39,523 nucleotides of DNA from positions 1 to 39,523 of the forward strand of contig JBDSCV010000214.1 of NCBI GenBank assembly GCA_039920905.1, given 5' to 3'. A program made the translations under genes and the position numbers. Under the pieces are notes generated by a model. The model was not told where the DNA came from and made no database searches. It saw nothing but the letters and a program-made list of their open reading frames with translations. How positions within the stretch are numbered: position 1 is the stretch's first letter; every line of letters starts with the position of its first letter. This document shows, in pieces, positions 3,795 to 39,492 of this stretch. This stretch comes from Pyrinomonadaceae bacterium. Its GTDB lineage: Bacteria; Acidobacteriota; Blastocatellia; Pyrinomonadales; Pyrinomonadaceae.

Positions 3795-4123
3795 TTCCGT
3801 GGACCGAATGAAAATGGTTCATCCTCCCAAGTTCGCCACCCCGAATTTTCCCTTCTGATTTGTTCACACCAACATTCTTAAAAAAAATCCATTCATCGGC
3901 ATTTCTTTACGCTTGTGTTATCTCCCGCACCGAAAGATTCTACTTTTCCCGGTAGGCTCGATTGGTGAGATACATACGCTTGATCGGGCAAATTGCCTTA
4001 ACAAGGCCGTCAATTCTGCCGATGCGTGACTGGAGTTTTGAAAAGCAATAACGATGAGAGACAATTGCCGGCCGGCCGTTAACAAACGGCGACCGAGTAG
4101 CGGGTTCAAAAGGAGATACCAAA

Positions 4124-4765
4124 ATGGAAAATCAACCAAATAATACGACAGATGCGAAAGCGGACCGGAATGGCGGCGGCAGTGGCCGCTCCCCAAAAAT
4201 GGCTCACGATAAAGAGTCTGATTCGAGTTCTTCCGACACCGGGCACCACGCTGGGAATGCTTCTGGTGAAGTGATGGACAAACTCAAGGTTACGGCCGGA
4301 AGTCTCGTGGACAAAGCGAAGGTGAGCGCGGGCGATGCATATGGGGCAGTAGCGGAGAAGGCGTCATCGGTCATCAATGAGCATAAATCTGAGTTTTCGG
4401 TCGGTCTCACAGGTGTGGCCGATACGGTCCGACGGGTCAGCGGCGCGATCACCGAGGGTGATACTAAAAACGCCGTCACGGAATATGCCGCGCAATACTC
4501 GGAAACGGCCGCGGAAAAGCTGGAAGGGGTGGCGCAATACTTTGAGACGACAGATCTTAAAGGCATGGCCCGTGACGTCGAGTCCTACGGCCGGCGAAAC
4601 CCGGCGATATTCCTTGGGGCCGCGTTTGCTATCGGAGTATTGGCGGCCAGATTTATCAAGAGTTCTCCGTCGCCGAAACCATTGAAGGCGGGAGCTAAAA
4701 AGGAGCTGTCTGCGGATGGGAATGGCCACGCAGCCGGTCAAGGCGCCTCAGCGGGGGCGATCTGA
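4124..4765 (+). CDS. hypothetical membrane-anchored protein (disordered N-terminus, single C-terminal TM)
   Basis: 213-aa ORF with a good RBS (AAGGAGA 7 nt upstream). C-terminus is RRNPAIFLGAAFAIGVLAARFIKSS. It is the first gene of a three-gene cluster with the next two ORFs. Confidence 0.7.
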   Translation: MENQPNNTTDAKADRNGGGSGRSPKMAHDKESDSSSSDTGHHAGNASGEVMDKLKVTAGSLVDKAKVSAGDAYGAVAEKASSVINEHKSEFSVGLTGVADTVRRVSGAITEGDTKNAVTEYAAQYSETAAEKLEGVAQYFETTDLKGMARDVESYGRRNPAIFLGAAFAIGVLAARFIKSSPSPKPLKAGAKKELSADGNGHAAGQGASAGAI

Positions 4766-4785
4766 CCCTAACGGAGATCGAGTTT

Positions 4786-5187
4786 ATGGCACAACAGCAA
4801 ATGGTAAAAGAGGAACGCAGTCTGGGTGAGCTATTAGGAGAACTCGCCGGTGAGACCGGTACGCTGGTTCGCCAAGAGGTCGCCTTAGCCCAAGTCGAAT
4901 TAGCACAGACTGCTACAGCTGCAGGTAAAAATATCGGATTTTTAGCCGTAGGCGGAGCGGTTGCCTTTATTGCGGCGCTGGCCTTTACGGCAGCGATCAT
5001 ACTGCTTCTCTCGCAGTTCATGCCGGCATGGGCGTCGGCACTCGTGGTCGGAGCTATTGTTGGAGTGATCGCCTTTTTTATGACGTCCGCGGCTCTGGGG
5101 AAATTGCGTAAAACGGACCCAATGCCAAGGGCAACTATTGAGATGCTGAAGGAGGATGCAAAATGGCTGAAGAAAGAAATGACATAG
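4786..5187 (+). CDS. phage-holin-like / Holin-X (DUF1469) family small membrane protein
   Basis: 133 aa. LGELLGELAGETGTLVRQEVALAQVEL is followed by two hydrophobic helices and KLRKTDPMP, the pattern I associate with DUF1469. Confidence 0.65.
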   Translation: MAQQQMVKEERSLGELLGELAGETGTLVRQEVALAQVELAQTATAAGKNIGFLAVGGAVAFIAALAFTAAIILLLSQFMPAWASALVVGAIVGVIAFFMTSAALGKLRKTDPMPRATIEMLKEDAKWLKKEMT

Positions 5188-9434: not shown

Positions 9435-12400
9435 CTAGAAAGCCTGAGAGAAACGGAAGTGAATTTGACCAGGTCGCAGCCTGTACTCGGCGTTTGGGGC
9501 CATATTTTGGGGTATCAGGAAAACTGGCGCGTTCAGCAGACGGCCGTAGTCGACGCCGAATTCACCCCCGACCGGCGTTTTGATCCTAAGGCCAAAACCG
9601 GCGGTGTGTGTCCAGACTGCACGCTGATTCTGTCCTGCAACGTCGTTTGCGGCAACTGTTGGTGCTTTAAATATGTCGCCGACTTTCCGAAAGACGTTAC
9701 CTCCATCGTAAAACGGCACGGCCCGAACGGCTTTGGCTAGTGGGATGCGAGCCTCCAGATTTATCACCGCCAAAGCATTGCCGCCAAAGGGAATAGTGAA
9801 CGGATCGAGAAAAACCGGTTCACGGCGGCTATTGCGAAAGGAGCCTTGCGGAACGATGACGACACGCGGGCCGGCCTCTTCAAAATCGAAACCTCGAAGC
9901 GTATTTGCTCCGCCCGCGAAGAATCTCTCGCTGATCGGCAGCAATCCATTTAAGGACGGGAACTGAGCACTTGTAAATCGAGTGTCTTTGGAAAAGAGGC
10001 TGCCAAGACCGATGATCGCTCGCCCTGCGAATGTAGTATTTTTGAGCGCCGCGACTGTGTAATAGTAGTTATAGTTGGCCTGGAATTTTTGAAACCCGAC
10101 ATTCGCTCCTAAAGTCGGAATCGAAACGTTATAGTCTGCCGTCAAATAATCGCCTTTGGTCGGATCGCTGGCGTTATATCTACATGGCTCCGTCTGCTCA
10201 CCTTTTGCGATCAGATCAAGCAGCGAATATTTTATTGAGCAATTTTGTCGTGTGTCGCGGGCAAATGTTGCCCCAAATCCAGAGATTCGTGTCCGGGCAT
10301 CGGGACGCAAGAGGTCCCTGCTCAAAAGGCTTTCGATCTTAAATAGCCGCACATCCTCAAATTTATATCTTAGAAATAGAATGCTCCGGTTTCTTCGGCT
10401 GATCGTCCGGCTTGTCTCGGCCGAAATTCCAAACCGGTTTATCGTTGGGCTTCCTATCTTGGCGCCAAATTCGTCTATCGGGTTTCCGGTTGCATCCACA
10501 CGCTGGACGATACCGAACGTACCTCTATCAAAAGCTGAGCGGAAAAAACGCGTTACGGTCGAGTCGCGTTGGTACTGAACGGAGAAAGTAAGCGGCGCGA
10601 AACGCTTTTGACCATCGCGGATAAATCGCGGATTGATAAAGTCAAACTGCACCAACTGCTGTCTTTGGCTCACTTTTATGCGGGCGCCGCCCTGCCAGAG
10701 ATTTCCAAAGAGATTGACGTGACGTATATCGAAAAAACCACTCAGGCCAAGATCTGTTGAGAAACCGCCACCGTATGAAAGCAAACGCGGCGGCTGTTCA
10801 TCGAGATTGACGATAATGTCTGTCAGGCGGCTGCCATCTGCCGTATCCCCGGCGGGCTGAGGTTTGATCTCGACACGCGAGAAGGCGTCTGTGCCGTAGA
10901 GATTTTGTTCGCTGGAATATATGTCAGCCGAACGAAGGAATTCGCCGGTTTTCAGCGTCAGCGCTCTCAAAACGGCATCCGTTTTTGTCGTCTCGTTGCC
11001 GTTTATAAGAATGCGGTTTATTAATACGTTTTTGCCTTCGCCCTCAATCTTAAATTCGATTTTGATCTCTCTTTTCTCGGCATTTGGTAATGCGGTATCC
11101 TCTACGACCGATGAGTTTACGCGGGCGTCGTAGTAACCCTGATTTGAATAGTATTCGGAAAGTTTCCTGACTGCATTTCTGATTCTAGCCCGCGAGTAAT
11201 TCCGTCCTGTCAGGCTGGGTAACTCCGCAAGTAATTTGTCCGTACTCACAGCTTTGTTTCCGGTGATGCTAACACCGCTGACAACGGTTGGTACGCCTTC
11301 TTCGACAACAAAAGTTATGATCAGCTCCTCACCGTTTAACGAAACCCCCTGATTGACACGCACGACCGCGTCACGATAACCAAGTTCCGACATCAGCGAA
11401 CGGATCGTCGCCGCGTCGTCTTCGAGGATCGCGGCGCTCGTATAGCCGCGACCGTAACCTAACACAGGGATAACGCCTAAGATGTTTGCCTCCTGAGAGC
11501 TAAGCACCGTCCGTATGTCTTCAATACTTAATTTATCAGTGCCCTGGATCCGGATATCCGTCAATGTTAGTCTGCGGTTAAGATCGACGCGATATTTTAC
11601 CTGAACTTTGCGTCCAATCAGATCTTCACCGCCAAGAAAAGAACACAAAAACTCCGTTTCATTGTCGAGAGGATTATTTTCAGTATCGGTCAGGGACGGT
11701 GTGGAAGAGCAGACCGGTGTGACATTGGCAAAAAAATAACCTTGTTCCTGGTAATAATTTTCGAGACGGCGTTCCCCTTCGACTATTCCTGCGTAATCTA
11801 ACGTTCCCTCACGCTTTATCGGGAGTAGTTTGGACTGCGTACCGCCATCGAGTTTACCTTTTTCCGTTTCGACCAGAACGTCAACGGTCGGGCCGACCTT
11901 TCCTGCCAGCACGACCGAGATCGAATTAGAATCACTTTCGAACGTGACTTTAGGCTCTTCGAGTTCCGGGGCCAGAAAGTCATCTTTTCTCAACTGCTCG
12001 CGTATCTTGGCGACATCGGCCAACAGACGATCACGGGAGTAAGGGCCGTCCTTTCGCAGTTTCAGCGACTTTTCAGGAATCGGTTTATCATACCCCTGAA
12101 TATTGATCTGAAATTTATCGACTTTGGTTTGAACGTTCGGCGTAACGGTAAATGTCACGCCAACCTCATTTTCGTTTTGCAGCGGGCGTCGTCCATACAC
12201 TACGTCAGACTGATAAAACCCGCGTTCGCGCAGATAGTCCAGTATCTGATCGGCGTTGTTGCGAAGCGTTTGCTCGGTTATCGCCGTTCCGGGCGTGAGC
12301 AGGTTTAGTTTGAACAAAAGATCCTGTTCCGTTATCTTATCGCCGACCGTGCGTCCAATCACGATCGCAACTTTTTCGGCTTGGGTTTTCCGTTTTACAT

Positions 12401-12746
12401 CAAAGCGAAGCTCGACATCGCCCGCCGCGTTAAGTGCGGCCACAACCGTAACGGTATCAACTTTTTTGGTGTTGTATAGTGCCGCGATCGCATCCCTGAT
12501 CCGGGCTGAGGAGTACTCAGAACCGATCGCTTCGCGGACGATTACGCGATATTGCTCTGTAACCGGTGAATTGGTCCCGGAGGCTCCAATGCTTACGTCC
12601 ACCTTTGCGATTCGGTGTTTTTCGTATTTGTTTTGCGCGAGACCAGCAAAACAAAAGACGCAAACGAGGATGCAGATAAACGCAGAACGCATCGATCGTT
12701 GAACGTTTGCTGTTACTCGTCTGTCGATGCTAAACCCCTTATACAT
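9435..12746 (-). CDS. Omp85-family outer-membrane protein assembly factor (BamA/TamA-like), unusually long
   Basis: 1103-aa ORF. The likely start is the internal MRSAFICILVCVFCFAGLAQ at 12692, which gives a signal peptide. There is a long run of POTRA-like repeats (e.g. LRERGFYQSDV, YQEQGYFFANV, MSELGYRDAVV, YSNQGYYDARV). The C-terminal barrel has FFAGGANTLRGF and ends in F. Confidence 0.85.
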   Translation of the reverse strand: MYKGFSIDRRVTANVQRSMRSAFICILVCVFCFAGLAQNKYEKHRIAKVDVSIGASGTNSPVTEQYRVIVREAIGSEYSSARIRDAIAALYNTKKVDTVTVVAALNAAGDVELRFDVKRKTQAEKVAIVIGRTVGDKITEQDLLFKLNLLTPGTAITEQTLRNNADQILDYLRERGFYQSDVVYGRRPLQNENEVGVTFTVTPNVQTKVDKFQINIQGYDKPIPEKSLKLRKDGPYSRDRLLADVAKIREQLRKDDFLAPELEEPKVTFESDSNSISVVLAGKVGPTVDVLVETEKGKLDGGTQSKLLPIKREGTLDYAGIVEGERRLENYYQEQGYFFANVTPVCSSTPSLTDTENNPLDNETEFLCSFLGGEDLIGRKVQVKYRVDLNRRLTLTDIRIQGTDKLSIEDIRTVLSSQEANILGVIPVLGYGRGYTSAAILEDDAATIRSLMSELGYRDAVVRVNQGVSLNGEELIITFVVEEGVPTVVSGVSITGNKAVSTDKLLAELPSLTGRNYSRARIRNAVRKLSEYYSNQGYYDARVNSSVVEDTALPNAEKREIKIEFKIEGEGKNVLINRILINGNETTKTDAVLRALTLKTGEFLRSADIYSSEQNLYGTDAFSRVEIKPQPAGDTADGSRLTDIIVNLDEQPPRLLSYGGGFSTDLGLSGFFDIRHVNLFGNLWQGGARIKVSQRQQLVQFDFINPRFIRDGQKRFAPLTFSVQYQRDSTVTRFFRSAFDRGTFGIVQRVDATGNPIDEFGAKIGSPTINRFGISAETSRTISRRNRSILFLRYKFEDVRLFKIESLLSRDLLRPDARTRISGFGATFARDTRQNCSIKYSLLDLIAKGEQTEPCRYNASDPTKGDYLTADYNVSIPTLGANVGFQKFQANYNYYYTVAALKNTTFAGRAIIGLGSLFSKDTRFTSAQFPSLNGLLPISERFFAGGANTLRGFDFEEAGPRVVIVPQGSFRNSRREPVFLDPFTIPFGGNALAVINLEARIPLAKAVRAVPFYDGGNVFRKVGDIFKAPTVAANDVAGQNQRAVWTHTAGFGLRIKTPVGGEFGVDYGRLLNAPVFLIPQNMAPNAEYRLRPGQIHFRFSQAF

Positions 12747-12767
12747 TCAAAAATTTCTATACGAGCC

Positions 12768-15700
12768 CTAGAACCGCCTACGGAATCGAATTTCAAAACT
12801 AAAATTATCGCGGTTGCGGGTCACGTTGCTCAATGACCGTTGTTCATACTGAGCGACAAAAGACAGCTTATTCGACACGCGATATTCCAGTGCCAGTAGC
12901 TGATTCTGATCCTGTGAGAGATTAGTCGAATAGGTAACACGCAAATTATTGTTAATCTGCCGTCCGACCGTCAGCCTGGCACCGGGGTTTACCGACTGTC
13001 CGGAAATAAGCGGGTCAATCTCAAACACGTTAAGGCCAAAGAGCTTATCGGTCGCTTTTCTGGCCGGATTATTGATGATAGCGTCGGTTAAAATTTCTGC
13101 CGCCGTATTGATGCCCGTTTGAGCAAGCGTCGGAATGCCGCCCGACGTGTTTGCCAGATTGCCGGTCGTTATCAATGAAACAACGTCTGCCTGAGGCAAA
13201 GCGGGACTGGAACGAACAGTCGCCGCAAGCTGCTCAGAGTCCTTGAGCGGCCCGGCAAGATTCACAAAGACCTGATAACCGCCGATCTCGGATTCGGCCT
13301 GAAGATTGATAACAGGTTCGATTGCAGTATCAGGCGGAAATTCCAAAACGCCCCGCTGCACGTCATAGCGTTCTTTTCGGAAAAAGATCGTGCCGCTATT
13401 AGCCGTGATCCGTCCTGACAAACGCGGATTATTTGCGTCACCCGTCAGCACGAGTGAAACTGACGCCGTTAGGTCCGCAATATTGTTTCGCACCACGAGA
13501 GCGTCGCGGCCCTCGATGATCAGATCGAATCGCGGAGCCGTGATCGACCCGCCGCCGCCGGAAAGTACGGGATCGCGCCGCCCTCCGATGAGATTTGCGA
13601 GATCAATGTCCTTGGAATAAAGACTGCGCTTGGCGAACACACGCCCGCCGATCGTCACTTGCAGACCATCCGTCCGGTTGCGTCGAATGCCCGATATCTC
13701 AAGCTGTGCGTCACCGGTCGTAATAAAATCTTTCGGCAGGGGAACCGTAACATTGTTGCCGTCCAGCGAGAAACGGAAAGCCTGAACAGCGAGTCCGTCG
13801 AGAGAGCCGCCACCGCTGGCAACAAACTTGCCGCCGCCAAGATACCCGGTCGCTTCTTCGACCTCAACCTGATTAGATGTAAAGATCAGACGGGCCTTCA
13901 AACGATCAATTGTGAAGCGGTCAGACCCTAAGAACGTGGCCACCGAACCGTTTACGATATTTGCCGTGCCTGATAGACGGGCGGTCGAATTTGGCCCCGA
14001 AAGCCTAACAGATGCGTCAGCAAAACCCGCAAAGAATGTATCTTTTGATGCGAGATTGAGCAAATTTAGATTTACCCGACCATCAATCGAAAGATTATTT
14101 ATGCCGTCATCCGTCAGGGCCTTTGTTCCCGCGATGGTCATATTCGAGCCGCCGCCGGCAAATCGGGCCCGTTCAAAATTTATCTCGCGAGTGTTAAATC
14201 TGATCAAAATCGGCTCGGCTGCGGCTAACGGCGTATCTTGTATCTGGAGAGCAAGCTGTGAGAATTGGGCCGTGCCGTTGAGATTTGCCGCAGTGTAAAT
14301 GCGGTTACCTTTGTCGTCGAGCTGTGTCAGATTGCCACTCAATTCGATCCGCCCGGTGCCGATTCCGGTGATCGGCAAGCCCTTTGCCTGTGGAACGAAT
14401 GCCAGAAAAGGTGATATTGGGCTCTGATTAAAGTCGGTAGCAACCGAAAAGGGTAAATTTGCGTCGGCGAAATTAACTGAGGCGTTTATCACTTGCGGGT
14501 GGCCGTCGAGGCTGGCGGTGAGATCGGCGGTAAGCATCTGATTCACGGTCTGACCCTTGAAAGTAATCTGGCCAAGCGTGGTTTCGTTCACCCGAACACC
14601 AGGCGAGGCGCCGCTGAAATTAACATTATAGGTCGGCGTCCGATCCAAAATGCCGGTAGCTTTCGCCGTAAAATCCACATCGCCGGTGATAACCGGAATG
14701 CTGTCACTCTTTGGCAAAAGGGCCAGCACAAGCGGCAGCGGAAGTGATTTTCCGCCAAGGTCAAAATCGAAAGTCTGAGACGCACGGTCATAGTTACCCA
14801 TTGCGGTGAGACGGCCCGTCCCGATCTGCATTTCCCCGCGTTGCAGGTCAATCGTGGTTCCGTTAAACACGGCCTTTACGTTTAGATTATCGAATGTCTG
14901 ACCCGCGATAATTCCTTTGGCGGCGGCTAGATTGATCTCGCCCCGAGATTCATTTGGAAGGCCGCTTATATCGATCGTCCCGGACGTTTGGCCGTCCAGA
15001 TCGCGGATCCGTTCCGGAAGTTCGACTGGCAGCGCAGCCAGCAAGTTACCGGCGTTTACATTTGTGAGTGTTGCTTTGACGGCGACATTATTCTTTCCCG
15101 TGTTGGGAACACTTACGGTGAACAACGCATTTCCACCGTTTCTTTCCTGCAATTTGCCGTTACGTAGTTCAACACCGAGGGGCGAGACAAATATGTCCGT
15201 CGCAACGCTGCCAAGCTCGCGTCCGCGTAATGAGATCGAGTCGAGCGAAGAGCGCCCCTCGATCGTCGGATCGGATAAATTTCCGGTAACAGTTCCGTCA
15301 AACGTAAGATTCCCGGCAATCTGTACCTGCATCGAATCAAGCTGTCGCTCGAGCTCCGCCGAGATGCCAAGCACACGCACCAAACGCTCGATCTCGTTCG
15401 CGTCGGTTGATCTCAATGCGAGTGTTAGATTTGAATTCTCGTCCTTTAGATCAAAACGCCCGGTCGCCGTTAGGTTGCTTTTCTCCGAATTCAACCTCGC
15501 GAGATCGACATTGAACAGGCCGCCTGCGGCACTCAATTTAATCTGCCCGTTCACGGGAATCAGGCCGCGTTCCGCGGTCCCGGCGTTAGCCGTAATGTCC
15601 GCATTTAGAGTTCCCGATGCGGTACGAAAGTTTGTGCCGTTAAATGTAAGATCAACGTTCCCGGTTGTTTGCCCCTCGATCGGTGTGATGCCGCCGCCCT

Positions 15701-17885
15701 GTAGAGCGAGCAGTTTTGAAATATCAAGATTGGAAAAATCACCCTTTAATGTTGATAAGCTGCGGTTATTGAGAGCGATCACGGCGTTGCCGTTTAGCTG
15801 GCCGTTCATCACGTCGGCCGTTATTTCGTTCAGGGCCACGCGGTCATTGTCTACATCAACCTTAACCTTTGCGGCACCAAGCGACACGCTGCCGAGCGCG
15901 CCGCCGCCGAGGCTCATATCCGCCGTAGCACGATAGCGGCCGGACGGCTCGAGTATAAAAACAGGTTTGTATATCTTTACGGCTTCGAGCGTTCCGCCAT
16001 CGGGCAAGCTTTTAGTTTTTGCCAGTGCCACATTCCCGGCGTCAATGTCGGCTGAGCGAACTTCGACATGGCCTTGCCTGATAGTGAGCCGGACGCCGCC
16101 AATATTAATGCTGCCCAGTGTTGCCGAGCCGGTATCGATCTTAGCTACGCGAAGCTTGTCGGAATAAACGACGGTTCCAGCCGATGAATTGTCGATATTT
16201 ACCGACGGAGCTTCGAGACCGTCAACCAATGCGCCATTCATATCCAATTGACCGACGCGAAGATTTTTGGCCGTCACATTGGTCGAATTTGGCAGATCGG
16301 TAAACCTAAAATCGTCAACCGACACATTTTTGACTTTATTATTTTTGATCTGTGCGGTTTCCGATCTTATATTGTCCAGATCGACGTGCGTCACGCCTTT
16401 TTGGTTTTTAACGCGAACATTTCGCCCGATCAGCCCCTGTAAACTGTAATCGTCAGTAGTAAATGATCTGGCCTGAATATTTGGAACAGTAACATTCACG
16501 ATGTCGCCGTTTACCGACAACTTGAGGTTCCGAGCCTTCAGTTCTGCAAATTCGTTATCCTTGATCGAAAATTTTAGCACCCGGCCGTTGCCTGATTCGA
16601 CTCGAAACTGCCTGTCTTTGTATTCGGCAAGAGCATCCGAGAGAAATAATCCGCCGAGCGTCAATGACTTTGATTTTGCTGCCGCCGCCTGTAATTCGCC
16701 AACCCAACGGAAATCCGTTCCCCTTCCCCGCACGTTTCCGACCATCTTAAGGAAATCGACGCGAAAATCTTCAAATGTCAGCATCTCAGCGATCGCTGTG
16801 CCGTTTGCCTCATAATTTGTATTGGTCCCGGCGACGGTCGCCGCTACGTTCAAAGCCTTGAGATAGACGCCGCCGGCCCGCAAGGACGCGGCGTCGGCCT
16901 CGCCTTCGATCTTATAGGTCTCGCCTTCGCCGGTGACCTTACCCTTAAAATTCCCGACGCCAATGAGTGATGTTCCAATCGGTAAAATGCTCGACGCCTG
17001 TGTCAGATCGACCGTAGATTGAATATCAAAATTGTATTTCGGGGCGGCCCAGTCGGTTAAAGTTCCCGCTAAATAGGAAGTGCCGATCGGCGTTTCAAGG
17101 TCAAACCTGCTGATCTCGGCGCCGTAACGGTCGGCGATCCCGATGGCCCGAATGTCGATCTTCTCGACCACGCTGCCGTCATAATTAAAATTCGAATCGG
17201 TAGAGGTTAGATCAAATTTATAGCGTCTTTGTTCCTCAGCGACTTCGCGATTTTCTGGTGAGAGCAGAAATAATAAATTTTTAGCGTCAGCCGTGATCTT
17301 TCGTGAGACGTCGCCAAAATGAACCACGCTGTCGGTAAGCGAAAAATCCGCCGAATCGTATTTAAAGTTTACGCGGCTTCCAGCCTGATCCTCGACAAGT
17401 TTTAGATTGGTAAAATTTGAACGCCCGTTCTCGTCAAACTTAACCCACGCTTCCGCACCCGATATTTCGGTTTTATCAATACTGATATCGCGGCTCATTT
17501 GCCATGCGTAAAGATTTTGAACCGATAATTCGAAATGGGCGTTACGGATAAAAAACAGTTTCTCACCGCTGACCCGATCATTGAAGGTCGCATTCTGGAG
17601 TTCCAATTCGAGCGGATTTACCGTTAGCCGGAAAACATCAGCGTCAAAGACCACGCCAATGTCCGCCATTTTCGAGACAAACTGGGTTTTAACATAATTG
17701 TCGAGAACTCCGTACCGGAACGCAACGACCGAGAGCAGCGAGACCAACACGCCCAGGATCACGATCAGACCGACCGAAATAACGGCATTGCGGCGCGTAA
17801 AATACCTGCGCGCTTGTCTGGCGGGAGGCGCTTCGGCCGGGTCTTGCTCACCTTTCGGGGTGTTTTTGATCTCTTCTTCCGACAT
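12768..17885 (-). CDS. tamB: translocation and assembly module protein TamB (AsmA-like/DUF490)
   Basis: 1705 aa. There is one N-terminal TM anchor (VISVGLIVILGVLVSLLSVVAF) and a long beta-rich body. The C-terminus, LTVGRQINNNLRVTYSTNLSQDQNQLLALEYRVSNKLSFVAQY, is typical of the TamB DUF490 end. Confidence 0.85.
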   Translation of the reverse strand: MSEEEIKNTPKGEQDPAEAPPARQARRYFTRRNAVISVGLIVILGVLVSLLSVVAFRYGVLDNYVKTQFVSKMADIGVVFDADVFRLTVNPLELELQNATFNDRVSGEKLFFIRNAHFELSVQNLYAWQMSRDISIDKTEISGAEAWVKFDENGRSNFTNLKLVEDQAGSRVNFKYDSADFSLTDSVVHFGDVSRKITADAKNLLFLLSPENREVAEEQRRYKFDLTSTDSNFNYDGSVVEKIDIRAIGIADRYGAEISRFDLETPIGTSYLAGTLTDWAAPKYNFDIQSTVDLTQASSILPIGTSLIGVGNFKGKVTGEGETYKIEGEADAASLRAGGVYLKALNVAATVAGTNTNYEANGTAIAEMLTFEDFRVDFLKMVGNVRGRGTDFRWVGELQAAAAKSKSLTLGGLFLSDALAEYKDRQFRVESGNGRVLKFSIKDNEFAELKARNLKLSVNGDIVNVTVPNIQARSFTTDDYSLQGLIGRNVRVKNQKGVTHVDLDNIRSETAQIKNNKVKNVSVDDFRFTDLPNSTNVTAKNLRVGQLDMNGALVDGLEAPSVNIDNSSAGTVVYSDKLRVAKIDTGSATLGSINIGGVRLTIRQGHVEVRSADIDAGNVALAKTKSLPDGGTLEAVKIYKPVFILEPSGRYRATADMSLGGGALGSVSLGAAKVKVDVDNDRVALNEITADVMNGQLNGNAVIALNNRSLSTLKGDFSNLDISKLLALQGGGITPIEGQTTGNVDLTFNGTNFRTASGTLNADITANAGTAERGLIPVNGQIKLSAAGGLFNVDLARLNSEKSNLTATGRFDLKDENSNLTLALRSTDANEIERLVRVLGISAELERQLDSMQVQIAGNLTFDGTVTGNLSDPTIEGRSSLDSISLRGRELGSVATDIFVSPLGVELRNGKLQERNGGNALFTVSVPNTGKNNVAVKATLTNVNAGNLLAALPVELPERIRDLDGQTSGTIDISGLPNESRGEINLAAAKGIIAGQTFDNLNVKAVFNGTTIDLQRGEMQIGTGRLTAMGNYDRASQTFDFDLGGKSLPLPLVLALLPKSDSIPVITGDVDFTAKATGILDRTPTYNVNFSGASPGVRVNETTLGQITFKGQTVNQMLTADLTASLDGHPQVINASVNFADANLPFSVATDFNQSPISPFLAFVPQAKGLPITGIGTGRIELSGNLTQLDDKGNRIYTAANLNGTAQFSQLALQIQDTPLAAAEPILIRFNTREINFERARFAGGGSNMTIAGTKALTDDGINNLSIDGRVNLNLLNLASKDTFFAGFADASVRLSGPNSTARLSGTANIVNGSVATFLGSDRFTIDRLKARLIFTSNQVEVEEATGYLGGGKFVASGGGSLDGLAVQAFRFSLDGNNVTVPLPKDFITTGDAQLEISGIRRNRTDGLQVTIGGRVFAKRSLYSKDIDLANLIGGRRDPVLSGGGGSITAPRFDLIIEGRDALVVRNNIADLTASVSLVLTGDANNPRLSGRITANSGTIFFRKERYDVQRGVLEFPPDTAIEPVINLQAESEIGGYQVFVNLAGPLKDSEQLAATVRSSPALPQADVVSLITTGNLANTSGGIPTLAQTGINTAAEILTDAIINNPARKATDKLFGLNVFEIDPLISGQSVNPGARLTVGRQINNNLRVTYSTNLSQDQNQLLALEYRVSNKLSFVAQYEQRSLSNVTRNRDNFSFEIRFRRRF

Positions 17886-34034: not shown

Positions 34035-35222
34035 ATGAACGGCAATTTAAGAAACAAAATTTTAATGAGTCTCGCCCGGCTTTTGGACGAGAACCGGGCC
34101 GAGATAGTCAAGGCAAACCGGGTCGATTTCGGTACATGTCCGCCTGACGATGCTGTCAGACTCGATCGTCTAAAGGTGGGCGACGCAAAGGTCGATGCGA
34201 TGATCGCGTCGGTGAAAAGCGTCATCGCCGTGCCCGACCCGACCGGAAAGGTCATCTCGTCGCAGACACGCGAGGACGGCCTGAGGATCGAAAACCGGCA
34301 GGTTCCGTTCGGCACGATACTGATTATTTACGAGGCCAGGCCGGACGTTTCCATCGAGGCGGCGATCATCGCCCTCAAAGCCGGAAACAGGATTTTGCTG
34401 AAGGGCGGGAAAGAGGCTCGAAACACAAATCTTTTGCTCGCCGATCTGTGGCGGCAAGCTCTCGCAGAGAACGGTGCCGATACGAATTTTGTCCGCTATC
34501 TAGATATTTCACGCGAGGAAACTCAAGACTTGATCTGCGGAAAAGCGGAAAAATTCGACCTTGTCATTCCGCGGGGCGGCGAGACGCTGATCGACTTTGT
34601 AGTGAAAAATTCGACTGCTCCGGTCTTGGTGAGCGGTCGCGGGAACAATTTTTTATTCATCGACACCGAGGCCGATTTTGATGTGGCCCTGGCGATAGCT
34701 CTCAATGGAAAGCAGCGTTTGAGCGTATGCAATGCTCTCGATAAGATATTGATCCACAAGGGTTTGCCTGAACGGGCGGCTAAAACCACGCGGCTCATTG
34801 CTGCCTTGCAGGAAATAGATATTGAGGTCTTTGGGGATGACGACGTTTGCTCAATCGACAGATCGGTCTTGCCGATCGCGGATGAAAGTGTCTGGTACGA
34901 AGAGTTTCTCGCGGCAAAAATAGTCGTCGGCATTGTTGAAAGCCGAGACGAGGCCATCGCAAAGATCAATAAATATTCCGGCGGACACTCGGCGGCAATC
35001 GTGACGGAAAACAAGGAATCGGCCAGGCGGTTTATGGAAGATGTAGATTGCGCGGCAGTCTATCACAACGCGTCCGTCAGATTCACCGACGGCGGCCAGT
35101 TCGGCCTCGGGGCCGAGATCGCGATATCGACCCAAAAACTCCATTTCCGCGGGCCGCTCGGCGCAGAGCATCTGCTGACGAATAAATGGTTTGTCTTCGG
35201 CGACGGGCAGATAAGAAATTAA
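34035..35222 (+). CDS. proA: glutamate-5-semialdehyde dehydrogenase (gamma-glutamyl phosphate reductase)
   Basis: IIYEARPDVSIEAAIIALKAGNRILLKGGKEA, the catalytic-Cys region RLSVCNALD, and HNASVRFTDGGQFGLGAEIAISTQKLHFRGPLG. Start taken at the ATG at 34035. Confidence 0.92.
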   Translation: MNGNLRNKILMSLARLLDENRAEIVKANRVDFGTCPPDDAVRLDRLKVGDAKVDAMIASVKSVIAVPDPTGKVISSQTREDGLRIENRQVPFGTILIIYEARPDVSIEAAIIALKAGNRILLKGGKEARNTNLLLADLWRQALAENGADTNFVRYLDISREETQDLICGKAEKFDLVIPRGGETLIDFVVKNSTAPVLVSGRGNNFLFIDTEADFDVALAIALNGKQRLSVCNALDKILIHKGLPERAAKTTRLIAALQEIDIEVFGDDDVCSIDRSVLPIADESVWYEEFLAAKIVVGIVESRDEAIAKINKYSGGHSAAIVTENKESARRFMEDVDCAAVYHNASVRFTDGGQFGLGAEIAISTQKLHFRGPLGAEHLLTNKWFVFGDGQIRN

Positions 35223-35252
35223 ATACGATGAGAAGCAAGGAAGAGTTTTGGC

Positions 35253-35333
35253 CGCAGATGAACGCGGACGACACAGATAAGAAGTGAATGAATTCTTTGT
35301 TCCTTATATCTGCGTAATCTGCGTTTATCTGCG
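35253..35333. repeat. three direct ATCTGCG repeats plus one inverted copy in the proA-proB spacer
   Basis: ATCTGCG is at 35308-35314, 35317-35323 and 35327-35333 (spacing 9 and 10). The inverted copy CGCAGAT is at 35253-35259, and GCCGCAGAT pairs with ATCTGCGGC. Confidence 0.7.
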
Positions 35334-35367
35334 GCAAAAAATCCTTCTCAGCGGTGTAGGTGAATTG

Positions 35368-36132
35368 ATGAAGAAGAAACTGGTTCTTAAAATAGGTACC
35401 TCGACGCTAACGAACGGTACGAAATTGATCTCGCGCGGAAAGATCGAGGACATCGGACGGCAGATACTTGAGCTGCGTGATGAATATGACATCGTCCTAG
35501 TCTCGTCCGGCGCCATCGCGGCCGCAAAGCAGCATATCAACATCAAAGACGCCGGAAAACCGGTCGAATCGAAACAGGCTATGGCCGCCATCGGCCAGCC
35601 GCTGCTGATGCGGACCTATAACGAGATATTCAGTGATTTTGGAATTCCAACGGCTCAATGCCTGATGACCTATCGCGATTTTGAAAACGAAATTTCACGC
35701 CAAAACACGCTCAACACTATCACTGAGCTGATTAAATATTCCTACGTCCCGATCATCAACGAAAACGACACAACGGCAGTCGAGGAGATCCTTTTAGGCG
35801 ATAACGACAACCTCTCAGCCCTCGTTGCCGTGTTGATCTCGGCTGACCTGCTTGTCCTGGCCAGCGACATCGACGGCCTCTTCGACAAAAACCCGCATCT
35901 ACACAAGGACGCGAAACTAATCCTCGAAATCAAAAATATCGACCAGGCCAAAACCCTCATCGAGGAGCGCGACTCCGATCTTGGCACCGGCGGCATGAAC
36001 TCAAAACTCGAAGCCGCTATGCTCTGCCAACGCGAAAATATCGAAACCTGGATAGTCGGCGGCGGGCAAAATAATTTTTTGATTGATGTGTTTGCCGGAA
36101 ACCGGCACTTTACAAAATTTCTTGTGAAATGA
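35368..36132 (+). CDS. proB: glutamate 5-kinase (short form without PUA domain)
   Basis: MKKKLVLKIGTSTLTNG.., VSSGAIAAAKQ, INENDTTAVEE, LGDNDNLSALVA, GTGGMNSKLEAA. At 254 aa there is no C-terminal PUA domain. Confidence 0.9.
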   Translation: MKKKLVLKIGTSTLTNGTKLISRGKIEDIGRQILELRDEYDIVLVSSGAIAAAKQHINIKDAGKPVESKQAMAAIGQPLLMRTYNEIFSDFGIPTAQCLMTYRDFENEISRQNTLNTITELIKYSYVPIINENDTTAVEEILLGDNDNLSALVAVLISADLLVLASDIDGLFDKNPHLHKDAKLILEIKNIDQAKTLIEERDSDLGTGGMNSKLEAAMLCQRENIETWIVGGGQNNFLIDVFAGNRHFTKFLVK

Positions 36133-36144
36133 TCTTTTTACTCT

Positions 36145-36663
36145 CTAATAAGGAAAGACTTCGACCTTCGTCACAACGCCCTTTTTTATCCGAACTACCC
36201 ATATAACACCAAATTCCACCTCAAGCAGCGGCCGGAAAATCTCTTTTTTTGTGAGTAAATTAGCAAGCGCCGGAATGGTGTTGCTGTGGCCGACGATGAG
36301 GTAATGGTCGGTTCTGCTCAGCATTATCTTGTCGATTAGTTCGGCGGGCTTTGCAGCATCATAGATCTGGATCGCCTTTTTGCGGTAGGCTGCTATCGGT
36401 TCCGCAGTTTGTCGCGTGCGCTTATAGTCTGTCGCAAATATCTCGTGAGATTTGTATTTTTTCACCGCATTCATTAGCCGAACAGCTCGCTCGCGACCCT
36501 CAACCGACAATTCCGGATCGCCCTTATCCATATCGGTAGCGGTACTCTTTTCAGCATGACGGAGGAGGACAATTGTCTTGTTCTGTGCCAAAATCGTGCC
36601 GCTTATGCACAACATAAGGACAGCAGACACTAACAAAGATAGACCACGCTTTATTTTATTCAT
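36145..36663 (-). CDS. secreted histidine phosphatase (SixA/phosphoglycerate-mutase superfamily) protein
   Basis: 172 aa with a signal peptide (LLVSAVLMLCISGTILA). It has the RHG-type motif IVLLRHAEKS and a second catalytic His in LIVGHSNTI. Confidence 0.8.
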   Translation of the reverse strand: MNKIKRGLSLLVSAVLMLCISGTILAQNKTIVLLRHAEKSTATDMDKGDPELSVEGRERAVRLMNAVKKYKSHEIFATDYKRTRQTAEPIAAYRKKAIQIYDAAKPAELIDKIMLSRTDHYLIVGHSNTIPALANLLTKKEIFRPLLEVEFGVIWVVRIKKGVVTKVEVFPY

Positions 36664-36718
36664 TGCTGAGGACTAGAAACCGATCTCAACGAGAACGACA
36701 CCAGTCGTCGTATCGGTT

Positions 36719-36808
36719 TCAATCTTTTTTAGTAAAACAGGGACAAGTAATTGGAGTGTTTCTAACTTGTTGTTTGAGCGGCAGATTTTCGTCAATTAAG
36801 ATTTTCAT
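36719..36808 (-). pseudogene. truncated remnant of a DUF5615 (PIN-like, Mut7-C type) toxin-like gene
   Basis: A 29-codon ORF, not in the track, overlaps the end of the DUF433 gene. It reads MKILIDENLPLKQQVRNTPITCPCFTKKD*. MKILIDENLP is the characteristic DUF5615 N-terminus, but full-length members are about 110 aa. Confidence 0.45.
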
Positions 36809-37016
36809 TCACGATCTGCCCGTTGCTGAATAGTTGCGAGGCCATTTTCATAACATCAGCAACCTGCTCTTTAGTGACCGTAGGATAGTTTTCGAGAAAT
36901 GAATCCAGTTTGTCATCTTCAAGATAGTCAAACAAGATCGCAACCGGAACCCGTGTACCACGAAACACCGGGATTCCACTCATTATTTCCTTGTCTACAT
37001 TGATCGCGTTATTCAT
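36792..37016 (-). CDS. DUF433 domain-containing protein (antitoxin-like)
   Basis: 74 aa. IMSGIPVFRGTRVPVAILFDYLEDD..FLENYPTVTKEQV is the typical DUF433 pattern. Its ATG overlaps the stop of the upstream gene (ATGAATAA). Confidence 0.8.
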   Translation of the reverse strand: MNNAINVDKEIMSGIPVFRGTRVPVAILFDYLEDDKLDSFLENYPTVTKEQVADVMKMASQLFSNGQIVNENLN

Positions 37017-37959
37017 GAGAAAATTTTAGCACTAATCTTATTCCAAAAAACATGATTACTTCTTGTAGAAAGCTGGGATAAGTTTTCACCCTTGTCGCGA
37101 TTCTCTTATGAACCGCCCCAGTTTCGTAATTCGCAGCTTCTTTATCGGTTTTGTATTCTCCTTTAAATCTATACATTAAATCCCCGAGCGGCCCCTTTAC
37201 ACGCGCAAACACGAGCCGACTTACTGTGCCATCGTTCAACATATTATCAAAATGTTTGCGAGCTTCGTCGGGCTTGATGCACAACTCCGTAATCGTTTCA
37301 TCATCGGGTGATATGCTGTTTTTCCAATCTTTGTTGGGATAAAGCTTGGGAAAACATAAACGTTTTCCTGTTTCACTGGGATGTGCGACCCAAGCTGTTT
37401 GAAGACCGTAGTATTTACGTCAAAAACAACTTGCAGCACCCGAAATAGTTCTGAAAGCTACATCTTCTGAGGCATCTATGTAACCATTCTTGATGTACGT
37501 CTCAGGATTTTGCTCGGCCTCCAAATCCCAAGATTTGAAATCCCCAGACGCATTCTTTTCCGCTATTTTTAACTTTATGAAAGTAACTATTTCATCAATT
37601 TGCCTATTTACTTCGTCGATTCCACAGTTCACTTTCACGTGCTTGAACACATGTTTAGTCGCATTGATTATGTCCTTTTCCCAAATCTGATCAAGTTCGA
37701 CCTGACCTAAGTGATGAGCCTCGTCAGTTTCAATTTGAATGCCCAGTTGCGGCAAATACAAATCCGTCATTGCTCGCCTGCCGTCGGGTCTGCCCACATA
37801 CTCTTGAGTAATACACTTGATTTTTGAATCTAGAAGAAGGTGCCAAATCCTCGTTACGCATAATGTTCGTATCGTTTCTTTTGGGCCTTTCCAAATTGTC
37901 GAGCGATAAATTCCAGCTTGTCCATAGGGTTCCTTTTTTAAATTGAGGTCATTTATCAA
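37009..37959 (-). pseudogene. PvuRts1I/AbaSI-family modification-dependent restriction endonuclease gene with one in-frame TGA
   Basis: Track ORFs 37420..37959 and 37009..37284 are in the same frame, and 951 nt is 317 codons. The whole frame is open except for the TGA at 37422-37420. TDLYLPQLGIQIETDEAHH (a Vsr-like nuclease core) and SRLVFARVKGPLGDLMYRFKGEYKTDK..HKRIATRVKTY resemble the conserved blocks of PvuRts1I as I remember them. The gene starts at a TTG 5 nt after the glcD stop, and the region is clearly AT-rich. Confidence 0.6.
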
Positions 37960-37964
37960 TCATA

Positions 37965-39389
37965 TCAAACAAACATCTTGCCCGGATTGAGAATGCCGTT
38001 TGGGTCGAAGACTTTTTTTATTCCCTTCATTATTTCGAGCGTAGGTTTGTCGATGGCGTAGTCGAGGTATTGGGCCTTGACGTAGCCGATGCCGTGTTCG
38101 CCGGATATGGTGCCGCCGAGGGCGACGGAAAGTTGAAATGTCTCCGAGACGCATTCGCGGGCACGAGCGATGGCGTCGGGATCGTCGCGGTCGATGACGA
38201 AATTGACGTGGATATTGCCGTCACCGGCGTGGCCGAAATTGGCGACGAATGTGTTGTGCTTTTTGCCGATCTGCTCGATCCTCGCGACGAGTTCCGGTAC
38301 TTTGGAACGAGGGACGACCACGTCTTCATTGATCTTGAGTGTTCCGTATTTCATCAGGCTGGGCGAAATTGCACGCCGGACGTCCCAGAGCTTGTCTTCG
38401 TCTTCTTTTGATTTGGCACGAAGAATATCAAAACCGCCGTTCTCGCCAATGATGCGTTCGATGGTTTCGGCATTTTTGGCAACCTCATCGTTTGATCCAT
38501 CGACCGCAACGAGCAAGATCGCCTCGGCATCTTTGGACAAACCGAAAGCAAAATTCTCTTCAACGGCGGCGACACAAAATTTGTCTATGACCTCCATAGC
38601 CATCGGGAGCAAACCCTCGGGCGTGAATTTGGTAAGTACCTTGCACGCCGCCTCCATTGAGCGAAAATTCGCCCGCACGGTCGAGGTCGCTTCGGGCATC
38701 GGGAGCAGTTTAAGCGTTGCCTCGGTAATAATGCCGAGCATCCCCTCGCTGCCGCACATCAGCCCCGTGAGGTCGAATCCGACGACGTTTTTGACCGTCT
38801 TGCCGCCCGTGCAAATGACCTCGCCGGTGGCGGTCACAACCTCTAAACCGAGAACATGATGCTTGGTCACGCCATATTTTGGAGTCCGCATACCACCCGC
38901 GTTTTCTGCAATGTTGCCGCCGATGAACGAGTCTTTATAGCTCGCCGGGTCGGGAGCAAACATCAGGCCATGCTTTTCGACAGCTTGTTGTAATTCAAAC
39001 GTCGTGATTCCCGGTTGGCAAATGGCGTACAGATCATCGACGCTGATCTCGATGATCTTGTTCATACGGTCAGTCCCGATCACGATCCCACCGTCCACCG
39101 GAACTGCCCCGCCCGTATAACCAACGCCGCCACCGCGAGCCGTGACGGGGAACAAATATTCATTGGCGAGTTTTAATATCGCGGCGATCTGAGCAGTCGA
39201 TTCGGGAAAGACAACGGCTTCGGGCGGGAATTTTTCCTTGACGGCGTCGGCACCATACGGCTCGACCTTTACCGGATCTATGACCACATTCTCGTCACCG
39301 ACAATTCGGCGCAATGCGTCAAGGATCTCCGGCTTTGACGCATTGGTGGTTGCCCTGCCTTTTGAATTGAAATGGATCGATTCGAACAT
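37965..39389 (-). CDS. FAD-binding oxidoreductase, GlcD / D-lactate dehydrogenase family
   Basis: VVFPESTAQIAAILKLANEYLFPVTARGGGVGYTGGAVP is the FAD-binding PCMH domain, and the C-terminus is GGTISGEHGIGYVKAQYL..DPNGILNPGKMF. I prefer the ATG at 39389 over the track's TTG at 39452. Confidence 0.88.
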   Translation of the reverse strand: MFESIHFNSKGRATTNASKPEILDALRRIVGDENVVIDPVKVEPYGADAVKEKFPPEAVVFPESTAQIAAILKLANEYLFPVTARGGGVGYTGGAVPVDGGIVIGTDRMNKIIEISVDDLYAICQPGITTFELQQAVEKHGLMFAPDPASYKDSFIGGNIAENAGGMRTPKYGVTKHHVLGLEVVTATGEVICTGGKTVKNVVGFDLTGLMCGSEGMLGIITEATLKLLPMPEATSTVRANFRSMEAACKVLTKFTPEGLLPMAMEVIDKFCVAAVEENFAFGLSKDAEAILLVAVDGSNDEVAKNAETIERIIGENGGFDILRAKSKEDEDKLWDVRRAISPSLMKYGTLKINEDVVVPRSKVPELVARIEQIGKKHNTFVANFGHAGDGNIHVNFVIDRDDPDAIARARECVSETFQLSVALGGTISGEHGIGYVKAQYLDYAIDKPTLEIMKGIKKVFDPNGILNPGKMFV

Positions 39390-39492
39390 TTTGCTTGAAT
39401 TCAATCGTAGCAAATTTAACAAAAACACGACATTTCTGATAAACTCACTCAAATTTCTTAAATATCAATTAACCGAACAGGAGCCGACCAGA

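Follow-up and report, generated by a model that had tools for sequence, protein, structure and literature searches.

A probable decaying accessory islet downstream of glcD, with an AbaSI/PvuRts1I-family nuclease pseudogene and a broken DUF433/DUF5615 cassette

The PvuRts1I family consists of type IV restriction endonucleases that depend on 5hmC or glucosyl-5hmC (g5hmC). An intact AbaSI/PvuRts1I enzyme is a homodimer: 5hmC or glucosyl-5hmC is flipped out by the SRA-like domain at its C-terminus, and its N-terminal Vsr-like domain, a PD-(D/E)XK variant, cuts nearby; these enzymes restrict phages with hypermodified cytosine. AbaSI (PDB 4PAR, 4PBA, and 4PBB) and PvuRts1I (4OKY and 4OQ2) share the motif D-x10-E-x-D-E-x-H-H with the gene copy described here. 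They come from Proteobacteria, whereas our copy comes from Acidobacteriota, its substrate specificity is putative, and, unlike them, it is pseudogenic, with a frameshift at codon 23, a nonsense codon at a Gly position, and a foreign 22-codon tail.

A second known system is the pairing of DUF433 (COG2442) genes with genes for PIN-like COG4634/PIN_10 (DUF5615) proteins, described in the available excerpts of Makarova et al. 2009 (PMC2701414) and PMC5499597 as predicted type II toxin-antitoxin (TA) pairs. In these pairs a small DUF433 gene overlaps the gene downstream of it, whose product begins MKIL(I/L)DE. The window (the whole stretch of DNA analysed, 39,523 nucleotides) contains a similar arrangement, but its toxin gene lacks ~197 nt internally and changes frame; the closest copies of that gene, in G158 and G067, are likewise broken. 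The excerpt of Matelska et al. 2017 (PMC5499597) also places a DUF433-PIN_10 TA pair in a defence island, beside GmrSD, another type IV nuclease that depends on DNA modification; in Belliella baltica the island holds DUF433-PIN_10, HsdM/HsdS, and GmrSD. There, as in the window, a TA module adjoins a type IV nuclease, but that nuclease is GmrSD rather than AbaSI-like, the genes are intact, and the gene set is larger; the juxtaposition in the window is not recurrent. Because of the GmrSD island in that excerpt, this kind of arrangement is not new, contrary to what an earlier note on this DNA suggested.

We conclude that the window very probably carries a recently inactivated accessory islet, in which an AbaSI/PvuRts1I pseudogene and a decayed DUF433/DUF5615 cassette lie at a swap-prone site next to glcD. 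The host would be a soil Acidobacteriota (Pyrinomonadaceae-like), represented by a genome bin. The locus is an ordinary case of accessory defence genes decaying at a swap-prone spot in a genome.

Reading frames and family of the nuclease gene

A 317-codon frame on the minus strand (37959-37009) had been described in the earlier note as open apart from one TGA. That frame does contain a single internal TGA, at 37422-37420, but it is not otherwise a continuous nuclease frame: from TTG 37959 onward, the initial ~33 codons show no alignment to the nuclease family, and the conserved N-terminus, MDKLEFIARQFGKAQKKRYEHY, is in the frame of ATG 37925, which ends at TAA 37856-37854. In tblastn the N-terminal peptide and the remainder appeared as two pieces in two frames. 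The true start is thus ATG 37925 and not TTG 37959, so that the 316-aa repaired protein proposed earlier had both the wrong start codon and the wrong initial frame. The pseudogene occupies 37009..37925 (minus strand), from ATG 37925-37923 to the frame's stop TAA 37011-37009, and homology to the family extends to about 37075 (..KTYP). The remaining 22 codons (SFLQEVIMFFGIRLVLKFSHE and the stop; 37009..37074, minus strand) have no counterpart in the alignments of homologues.

The assignment to the PvuRts1I/AbaSI family was confirmed. The nuclease frame contains the motif DLYLPQLGIQIETDEAHH and, towards its C-terminus, the SRA-like stretch. Pfam PF21598 (PvuRts1I-like_N) matched (81.3 bits, cut-off 27, E 9e-23); model positions 17-131 of 131 fell in the downstream frame, and positions 1-16 corresponded to the peptide in the ATG 37925 frame. 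With the stop read through as X, PF18491 (SRA) matched over model positions 1-145 of 145 (113.5 bits, cut-off 30.2, E 1e-32). Searches with phmmer against solved structures returned AbaSI (4par, E 3.7e-48) and PvuRts1I (4oky, E 4.8e-25), and the PADLOC model mREase_II PDLC03210 matched at E 1.3e-79. Proteins matching the nuclease at E<=0.001 numbered 218, and identity to intact homologues of 287-290 aa was 74-75%. NCBIfam, even at E<=1, returned no family for the nuclease, the DUF433 protein, or the DUF5615 remnant. When the assembly (bin 71.6% complete, 326 contigs) was searched with PF21598, this locus alone matched; at that completeness an intact paralogue may yet lie elsewhere in the genome.

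By alignment, the equivalents of AbaSI D61, E72, D74, E75, H77, and H78, which the available excerpt of PMC4081097 lists as catalytic residues, are identical in the downstream frame. The equivalents of K23 and E26 are also kept, but are encoded in the frame upstream of the frameshift; the invariant His beside the catalytic site (AbaSI H70) is Gln in the pseudogene. From this homology we infer that an intact form would have cleaved DNA in a 5hmC/glucosyl-5hmC-dependent manner, the enzymology ascribed to the window nuclease being that of its family.

Lesions and alleles

The first lesion is a 1-nt deletion inside codon 23 (consensus H-Y-V-V-T-R) at 37858..37859 (minus strand), located at column 115 when the DNA is aligned with the intact orthologue of G015, and evident also from protein alignment of both frames. 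It leaves the 22 conserved codons at the start out of frame with the remainder of the gene, the ATG frame running into its TAA, and its context, ..TATG^CGTAAC.., contains no homopolymer. The second lesion is the TGA at 37420..37422 (minus strand). Fifteen intact homologues invariably encode Gly at this codon, and G015 does so with GGC; AbaSI and PvuRts1I both have Gly there, in the motif CFGY or CFG(Y/R), and for PvuRts1I the earlier note had said as much. The same note considered the gene to have been killed by this single TGA; because of the frameshift, there are at least two lesions, besides the non-homologous 22-codon 3' tail. Membership in the family calls for one uninterrupted ORF of ~280-330 aa; with a frameshift and a TGA instead, the locus counts as a PvuRts1I/AbaSI pseudogene and not as a working member. 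The deletion past codon 22 severs helix alphaA with its invariant Lys/Glu pair, and the TGA at the invariant Gly truncates the SRA domain, so that no active enzyme can be made.

Alleles were compared using per-run contigs, made with a different assembler from the window's, for four soil/rhizosphere runs (X1-X4) of one study. These runs may include the source reads of the bin, and agreement among them excludes an assembler artefact but does not represent independent populations. Contigs of all four runs agreed with the window across 37858/9, and those of X2, X3, and X4 retained the TGA. The X1 contig reads GGA (37422 A>C on the plus strand) and has its own 1-nt deletion at 37443..37443 (minus strand), where a TTT run is short of one T and the frame is shifted; this allele is represented by a single contig of 3429 nt with a depth of 8.2. 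The expectation that reads with GGA would mean an intact gene was thus not realized. The same X1 contig and one X2 contig also had 37486 A>C (plus strand), which on the gene strand turns an Asn codon (AAT) into one for Lys (AAG), the family consensus (xKGYID). Because one allele has the TGA with the frameshift and the other has GGA with the 37443 deletion, there are two alleles among these contigs, and both are dead. The frameshift would be the earliest lesion, because every sampled allele has it; the TGA of one allele and the 37443 deletion of its counterpart would have arisen later and independently. Strain-level alleles with a common first lesion and differing later ones provide a small, clean picture of the decay of an unused restriction gene.

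At 78 columns invariant in the 15 intact homologues, the pseudogene has 6 deviations, including H>Q, R>W, and R>H, compared to 0 in its four nearest relatives and 0-4 across all homologues. These extra changes show relaxed constraint. The dN of the pseudogene to outgroups was not raised; dN/dS of the nuclease is uninformative owing to saturation of dS, which was >3 or undefined for all pairs with the window. The inactivation appears to have occurred recently. No RNA run contained this stretch. Another copy of the nuclease, L075, is broken into three frames.

Three readings that would leave a functional product have to be weighed against inactivation. It is very unlikely that the gene is intact in the organism and that the frameshift and stop are consensus or assembly errors of a metagenome bin. 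The window is indeed one contig of a 326-contig bin, and one run's contig has GGA at the stop position; but the GGA allele has its own frameshift, the separately assembled contigs agree with the window at the first lesion (4/4 runs) and at the TGA (3/4), the 5' deletion lies outside any homopolymer, and additional missense changes are found at invariant columns. Recoding, with TGA read as Gly (NCBI table 25) or selenocysteine and a programmed frameshift besides, would suit a stop located exactly at the homologues' Gly. Its probability is negligible: the adjacent glcD terminates with TGA at the position of its orthologues' C-terminus (GKMFV), so TGA is a stop in this genome, and table 11 stops close long ORFs across the contig. 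An Rfam search of 35000-38200 at E<=1 gave no match to a SECIS or other element, a slippery heptamer is absent at 37858/9, and close relatives use GGC for the Gly in an ordinary frame. The last of these readings is a functional split, in which a 179-aa ORF beginning at TTG 37959 serves as a lone Vsr-like nuclease alongside a separate SRA reader, co-transcribed with DUF433. Gene callers predict this ORF (P0003), which is open and retains the D/E/D/E/HH site. We regard the split as highly improbable, because the TGA falls within the SRA domain, around position 26 of the 145 in the Pfam model, and the next in-frame start, TTG 37284, leaves 91 aa, so that no whole SRA domain is possible; furthermore, all 119 other homologues among the matches listed are single two-domain proteins (254-413 aa). 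The preferred reading is inactivation, and the annotation of the 179-aa 'PvuRts1I-like' ORF is corrected to a fragment of a two-lesion pseudogene.

The site between glcD and the histidine-phosphatase gene

The islet (36664..37964) lies between conserved genes and in relatives is replaced by other cargo or none. Its GC content is 41.3%, whereas the contig averages 50.5%, with an sd of 2.6 for 1301-nt windows. No stretch of this size in the contig is poorer in GC, and 0.4% of 765 windows were equally low. The sharp drop in base composition after glcD that had been noted earlier was reproduced, windowed GC falling from 0.53-0.57 in glcD to 0.40-0.43 over 36600-37950. On one side is a glcD-like FAD-linked oxidase gene (37965..39452, minus strand), recognized by a Pfam match on its orthologues and 83-91% identical in relatives. 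On the other is a histidine-phosphatase superfamily gene with a signal-like N-terminus (36145..36663, minus strand; PF00300, 49.8 bits), which is found likewise in G015, L017, L033, and L008. The nuclease adjoins glcD in L014, L016, L017, L018, L027, L033, and L075. Elsewhere the glcD-adjacent site carries GmrSD_N (G005) or a ParE pair (G013), and in G012 glcD and the histidine-phosphatase gene are just 30 nt apart. The islet thus appears to be a variable, swap-prone defence/TA site downstream of glcD. With its low GC content, broken genes, and variability in relatives, it agrees with the earlier description of an accessory islet in decay.

A promoter and terminator scan of 36500-38100 gave 2 and 1 predictions, respectively, fewer than in shuffled sequences (3.3 and 1.7). 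Between 35900 and 38300, the only repeats were a 17-nt sequence present twice and a short palindrome, with no flanking att-like repeats; the contig has no tRNA genes.

The nuclease is present in 5 of 60 other genomes of the genus. The orthologue in G015 (L003 3018-3878) occupies the same site, between glcD and the histidine-phosphatase gene, with 76% nucleotide and 74% amino-acid identity to the window copy and a similarly low GC content (41.4%). It is an uninterrupted gene of 287 aa, whereas the window copy is broken, and it is accompanied by VapBC-like genes, a downstream pair encoding an 80-aa protein and a PIN protein (133 aa), where the window has DUF433/DUF5615 instead. Its identity to P0001, labelled in one source as 'AbaSI family restriction endonuclease [Pyrinomonadaceae bacterium]', is 97%. 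Candidate new enzymes for 5hmC mapping are the intact orthologues in G015, G172, and L016; for the mechanism of the family, nothing known changes.

We tentatively propose, without giving it better than even standing, that the 3' side of glcD is a conserved defence/TA hotspot of this soil Acidobacteriota genus and family. Modification-dependent nucleases of two unrelated families (AbaSI-like and GmrSD-like) would be exchanged there along with three or more TA types, point lesions would repeatedly eliminate AbaSI-like genes (the two alleles of the window, and L075), and DUF433 antitoxins would be kept as orphans. Such a glcD-adjacent hotspot in little-studied bacteria would hint that they are preyed on by phages whose cytosine is hydroxymethylated or glycosylated; if the proposal is true, the pressure from cytosine-hypermodified soil phages would be fluctuating.

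The DUF433/DUF5615 cassette and its linkage to the nuclease

The DUF433 (COG2442) gene is intact, with 74 codons at 36792..37016 (minus strand), and matched PF04255 with 50.6 bits against a cut-off of 23.6, in agreement with the earlier identification. Its product, predicted to be an antitoxin or DNA-binding protein, is 66% identical to the G067 copy and 63% identical to the G158 copy. As had been described, its start overlaps the end of the nuclease frame: the 22-codon tail enters the DUF433 start, and the TAA overlaps the ATG, as ATGAATAA. Similarity to the G158 and G067 DUF433 cassettes begins just ~15-20 nt ahead of this ATG.

The nuclease and the DUF433/DUF5615 pair might form one functional defence module, with the TA pair regulating or backing up the nuclease and both having decayed together, as the coupling suggested in the earlier note would imply. 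We consider this very unlikely. The overlap of the reading frames, which might suggest it, involves the non-homologous 3' tail of an already dead frame. A Pfam scan of 150 ORFs, covering 37 of the 78 nuclease loci, did find TA modules (PIN, ParE, PemK) no more than 1.3 kb from the nuclease at 5 of these 37 loci, and the excerpted PMC5499597 island likewise has a DUF433-PIN_10 pair beside GmrSD; but the type of TA varies between orthologous sites, with AT/PIN in G015 and ParE in G164 and G013. In a six-frame translation of all 78 nuclease loci (565 kb), which were collected using an alignment of intact homologues only, the DUF433 profile gave 0 matches at E<0.01; the positive control on the window gave 2e-33. 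The nearest DUF433 cassettes adjoin a radical-SAM-like gene, without a nuclease. That the nuclease frame runs over the DUF433 ATG results from juxtaposition and is no operonic coupling.

DUF433 is paired with a downstream PIN-like gene, though this partner is broken. The truncated DUF5615-type partner proposed earlier was recovered by alignment to G158 and G067. The N-terminal remnant of the DUF5615/COG4634-type PIN-like toxin (MKILIDENLPLK; 36773..36808, minus strand) has 10/12 residues identical to the G158 and G067 partners; the 29-codon ORF containing it, with the N-terminus MKILIDENLP, starts 17 nt within the DUF433 3' end, as in relatives, and runs on out of frame to 36719. The C-terminal remnant (NNKLETLQLLVPVLLKKIETDTTTGVVLVEIGF and the stop; 36673..36774, minus strand) is in another frame and has 10/19 (G158) and 12/19 (G067) residues identical, ~197 nt being absent between the two. 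With an ad hoc partner profile, the N-terminal remnant ranked 1 of 1407 six-frame fragments of the window (E 0.021, model 1-13) and the C-terminal one ranked 2 of 1407 (E 1.6, model 73-103), a value that is weak alone; the latter is convincing only through direct alignment to the two close copies, themselves broken. A global MAFFT alignment did not place the C-terminal remnant, but translation frame by frame with anchors did. Pfam, even at E<=10, returned nothing, PF18480 included, for the 29-aa and 40-aa DUF5615 fragments, whereas the intact partner in relative L103 matched PF18480 with 26.2 bits (cut-off 23.8). PADLOC had no match for DUF433, the intact DUF5615 partner, or the G015 PIN protein.

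With ~197 nt of the toxin gene lost, the intact DUF433 gene would remain as an orphan. Orphan DUF433 genes after toxin decay were found in 5 of 14 close cassettes, the window included.

The nuclease pseudogene and its two lesions

The window gene belongs to a known enzyme family and was inactivated recently; it lies beside a half-decayed toxin-antitoxin system of known type, at a variable hotspot. The earlier note had correctly assigned the family and described a decaying islet; its diagnosis of a single stop, its start codon, and its coupling of the nuclease to DUF433 did not hold. The window is the entire contig C214 of a genome bin of 326 contigs that is 71.6% complete. Judged by the labels of its nearest homologues and records, the bin belongs to Acidobacteriota and is Pyrinomonadaceae-like. 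The islet (36664–37964) lies between a glcD-like FAD oxidase gene (39452–37965) and a histidine-phosphatase gene (36663–36145), both on the minus strand. GC-content fell from 0.53–0.57 to 0.40–0.43 on entering it, as had been claimed, and windowed GC placed these 1301 nt (41.3% GC) as the lowest such stretch of the contig (mean 50.5%, sd 2.6%).

The nuclease frame (37959–37009, minus strand) contains the one internal TGA (37422–37420) reported from the sequence. Read through as X, it matched the Pfam models PvuRts1I-like_N (81.3 bits) and SRA (113.5 bits), PADLOC mREase_II (1.3e-79), and the solved structures of AbaSI (3.7e-48) and PvuRts1I (4.8e-25), all in agreement with the PvuRts1I/AbaSI family. 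The note was right that a Gly faces the stop: both structures have Gly (CFGY) opposite the TGA; this Gly is invariant across 15 intact homologues. The glcD-like gene also ends in TGA, with the same C-terminus as its orthologues, and TGA works as an ordinary stop in this genome.

The Pfam match started only at model position 17, and the ~33 codons at the start of the frame had no alignment to the family. The conserved family N-terminus, MDKLEFIARQFGKAQKKRYEHY, is encoded in a different frame from ATG 37925 and ends at TAA 37856–37854. An independent search of the genomes found the nuclease in two pieces and two frames (residues 1–24 and 13–284). Alignment with the intact orthologue of G015, a genome of the same genus (76% nucleotide identity), showed one base missing at 37859/37858, in the codon of the first Val of H-Y-V-V-T-R, where there is no homopolymer. 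The final 22 codons of the frame (37074–37009) had a counterpart in no homologue. By the AbaSI architecture and catalytic residues in excerpts of PMC4081097, the equivalents of K23 and E26, an invariant Lys and Glu, lie 5' of the frameshift together with helix alphaA, and those of D61, E72, D74, E75, H77, and H78 all lie 3' of it. Literature searches on other aspects of the locus turned up no publication about the AbaSI family in Acidobacteria.

Alleles and age of the inactivation

Contigs from four soil/rhizosphere runs of one study (X1–X4), which possibly include the bin's own reads, were compared with the window at contig level over 36600–38100. At 37858/9 the window sequence was identical in contigs of all four runs. 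The earlier note had allowed for a consensus error at 37420–37422. The TGA was retained in contigs of X2, X3, and X4; in X1, the only contig that spans the site (3429 nt, depth 8.2) had A to C on the plus strand at 37422, giving GGA (Gly) on the gene strand. It also lacked one T at 37443, and the reading frame is thereby newly shifted 21 nt before that codon. This contig and one X2 contig further had A to C at 37486, changing AAT (Asn) to AAG (Lys) on the gene strand, and Lys is the family-consensus residue of xKGYID. Two alleles exist; one resembles the ancestor more closely at two positions, yet has a frameshift of its own. Because the 5' frameshift is common to both, it was probably the first hit.

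At 78 columns invariant in the 15 intact homologues, the window had six deviations (Q>E, H>Q, R>W, R>H, Gly>stop, and E>D); a leave-one-out control gave none in the four nearest relatives and 0–4 across all homologues. The dN to the homologue at L017 was 0.346 for the window vs 0.354 for G015. Because the outgroup dN of the window was not elevated and dS to the nearest orthologues was saturated, substitution patterns indicate that most of the divergence accumulated under constraint and that inactivation is recent.

The DUF433 cassette

The DUF433 gene (36792–37016) is intact, with 74 codons (PF04255, 50.6 bits). A search of 121 genomes of the family found such genes in 88, frequently in multiple copies; the nearest, in genomes G067 (66% identity) and G158 (63%), both adjoin a radical-SAM-like gene and no nuclease. 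Excerpted text predicts COG2442/DUF433 to be the antitoxin of PIN toxins (PMC2701414) and classes COG4634 and PIN_10 as Mut7-C-like PIN toxins (PMC5499597); the term "DUF5615" was absent among the matches listed for literature on DUF433 or DUF5615.

In relatives the 3' end of DUF433 is overlapped for 17 nt by a gene starting MKI(L/I)(L/I)DE (102–131 aa), and one such partner matched PF18480 DUF5615 at 26.2 bits (cut-off 23.8). The claimed truncation of this partner in the window (remnants at 36673–36808) was evident: its first 12 codons, MKILIDENLPLK, are kept (10/12 identical to the G158 and G067 partners), and NNKLETLQLLVPVLLKKIE..GF* follows in another frame (10/19 and 12/19 identical to the C-terminal pieces of the G158 and G067 partners, respectively), with ~197 nt absent between them. 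Against a profile of seven relatives' partners (six of the seven intact rows, all but L096, plus the broken L094 partner), these fragments ranked first (E 0.021) and second (E 1.6, by itself not significant) of 1407 six-frame fragments; the rows forming the profile match it by construction, because it was built from them. Among the 13 closest DUF433 loci the partner was intact at seven (one, L102, from the unpublished genome G057), a remnant at four, and not detected at two. The G158 partner is broken by one frameshift and that of G067 by a stop and two frame changes.

A DUF433 profile that detected the window's gene at 2e-33, though that gene was left out of it, gave no hit below E 0.01 in six-frame translations of 78 nuclease loci across bacteria (565 kb, with flanks of up to 4 kb each). 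Pfam analysis of 150 neighbour ORFs at 37 of these loci found PIN at two, ParE at two, PemK at one, and DUF433 at none. Because DUF433 was not found at any of these 78 loci, we conclude that the overlap is a local accident at a site that gathers small cassettes of a selfish or defensive kind. PMC5499597 describes a Belliella baltica island in which DUF433-PIN_10 occurs together with HsdMS and with GmrSD, a type IV enzyme.

The glcD-adjacent site in relatives

Orthologous loci bore out the picture of a decaying islet. Between the same two flanks, the nuclease of G015 is intact (287 aa), and an 80-aa ORF and a PIN protein come after it. The nuclease also adjoins glcD at loci L014 (genome G172), L016, L017 (G164), L018, L027, L033, and L075; at glcD-adjacent loci its identity ranged from 49% to 100% vs 83–91% for glcD. 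It was present in five of 60 other genomes of the genus searched. Downstream of glcD in other members of the genus the cargo differs. G005 encodes, directly after glcD, a GmrSD_N-domain protein of 315 aa (L005 487–1434), from another modification-dependent type IV nuclease family, in the place of the window's AbaSI-like pseudogene; G013 has a ParE pair; and several genomes have DUF6843, DUF3828, or unassigned ORFs. G012 has no cargo, with 30 nt between glcD and the phosphatase gene.

In G164 the 3' end of glcD (residues 458–495, 84% identity) is duplicated downstream of the full gene (L017 3152–3265, L109 652–765), with a ParE pair between them, a pattern expected if a cassette inserted in the glcD 3' end, bringing or leaving a replacement end. 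At L075, in a Chloracidobacterium-labelled bin, the AbaSI-like gene (4001–4868) is split over three frames by two frameshifts, and glcD also aligns as two pieces; the nuclease there is a second pseudogene that decayed independently of the window's.

At L039, L041, and L042, in unrelated bins labelled Desulfobaccales, Methylotenera, and Cyclobacteriaceae, respectively, the nuclease comes after a gene for a DnaB-like helicase and a conserved ORF of 79 aa, and this recurrence suggests that the three loci share a mobile element carrying it. At two Acidobacteriota loci where the nuclease is away from glcD, an ORF6N-domain gene (KilA-N/Rha-like, phage-associated) lies directly 3' of it (L110 2514–3068, L034 3690–4244).

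A ~100-nt palindromic element upstream of a proB-like gene (35240–35345; arms GGCCGCAGATGAACGC.. and ..GCGTTTATCTGCGGC) matched nothing in Rfam and looks REP- or MITE-like. A ~40-nt part (35305–35350) has copies of 83–97% identity on many contigs from genomes of the genus, as well as on three further contigs of this bin (C292, C283, and C108). Two adjacent very long ORFs (1103 and 1705 aa) occupy the minus strand at 9435–17885.
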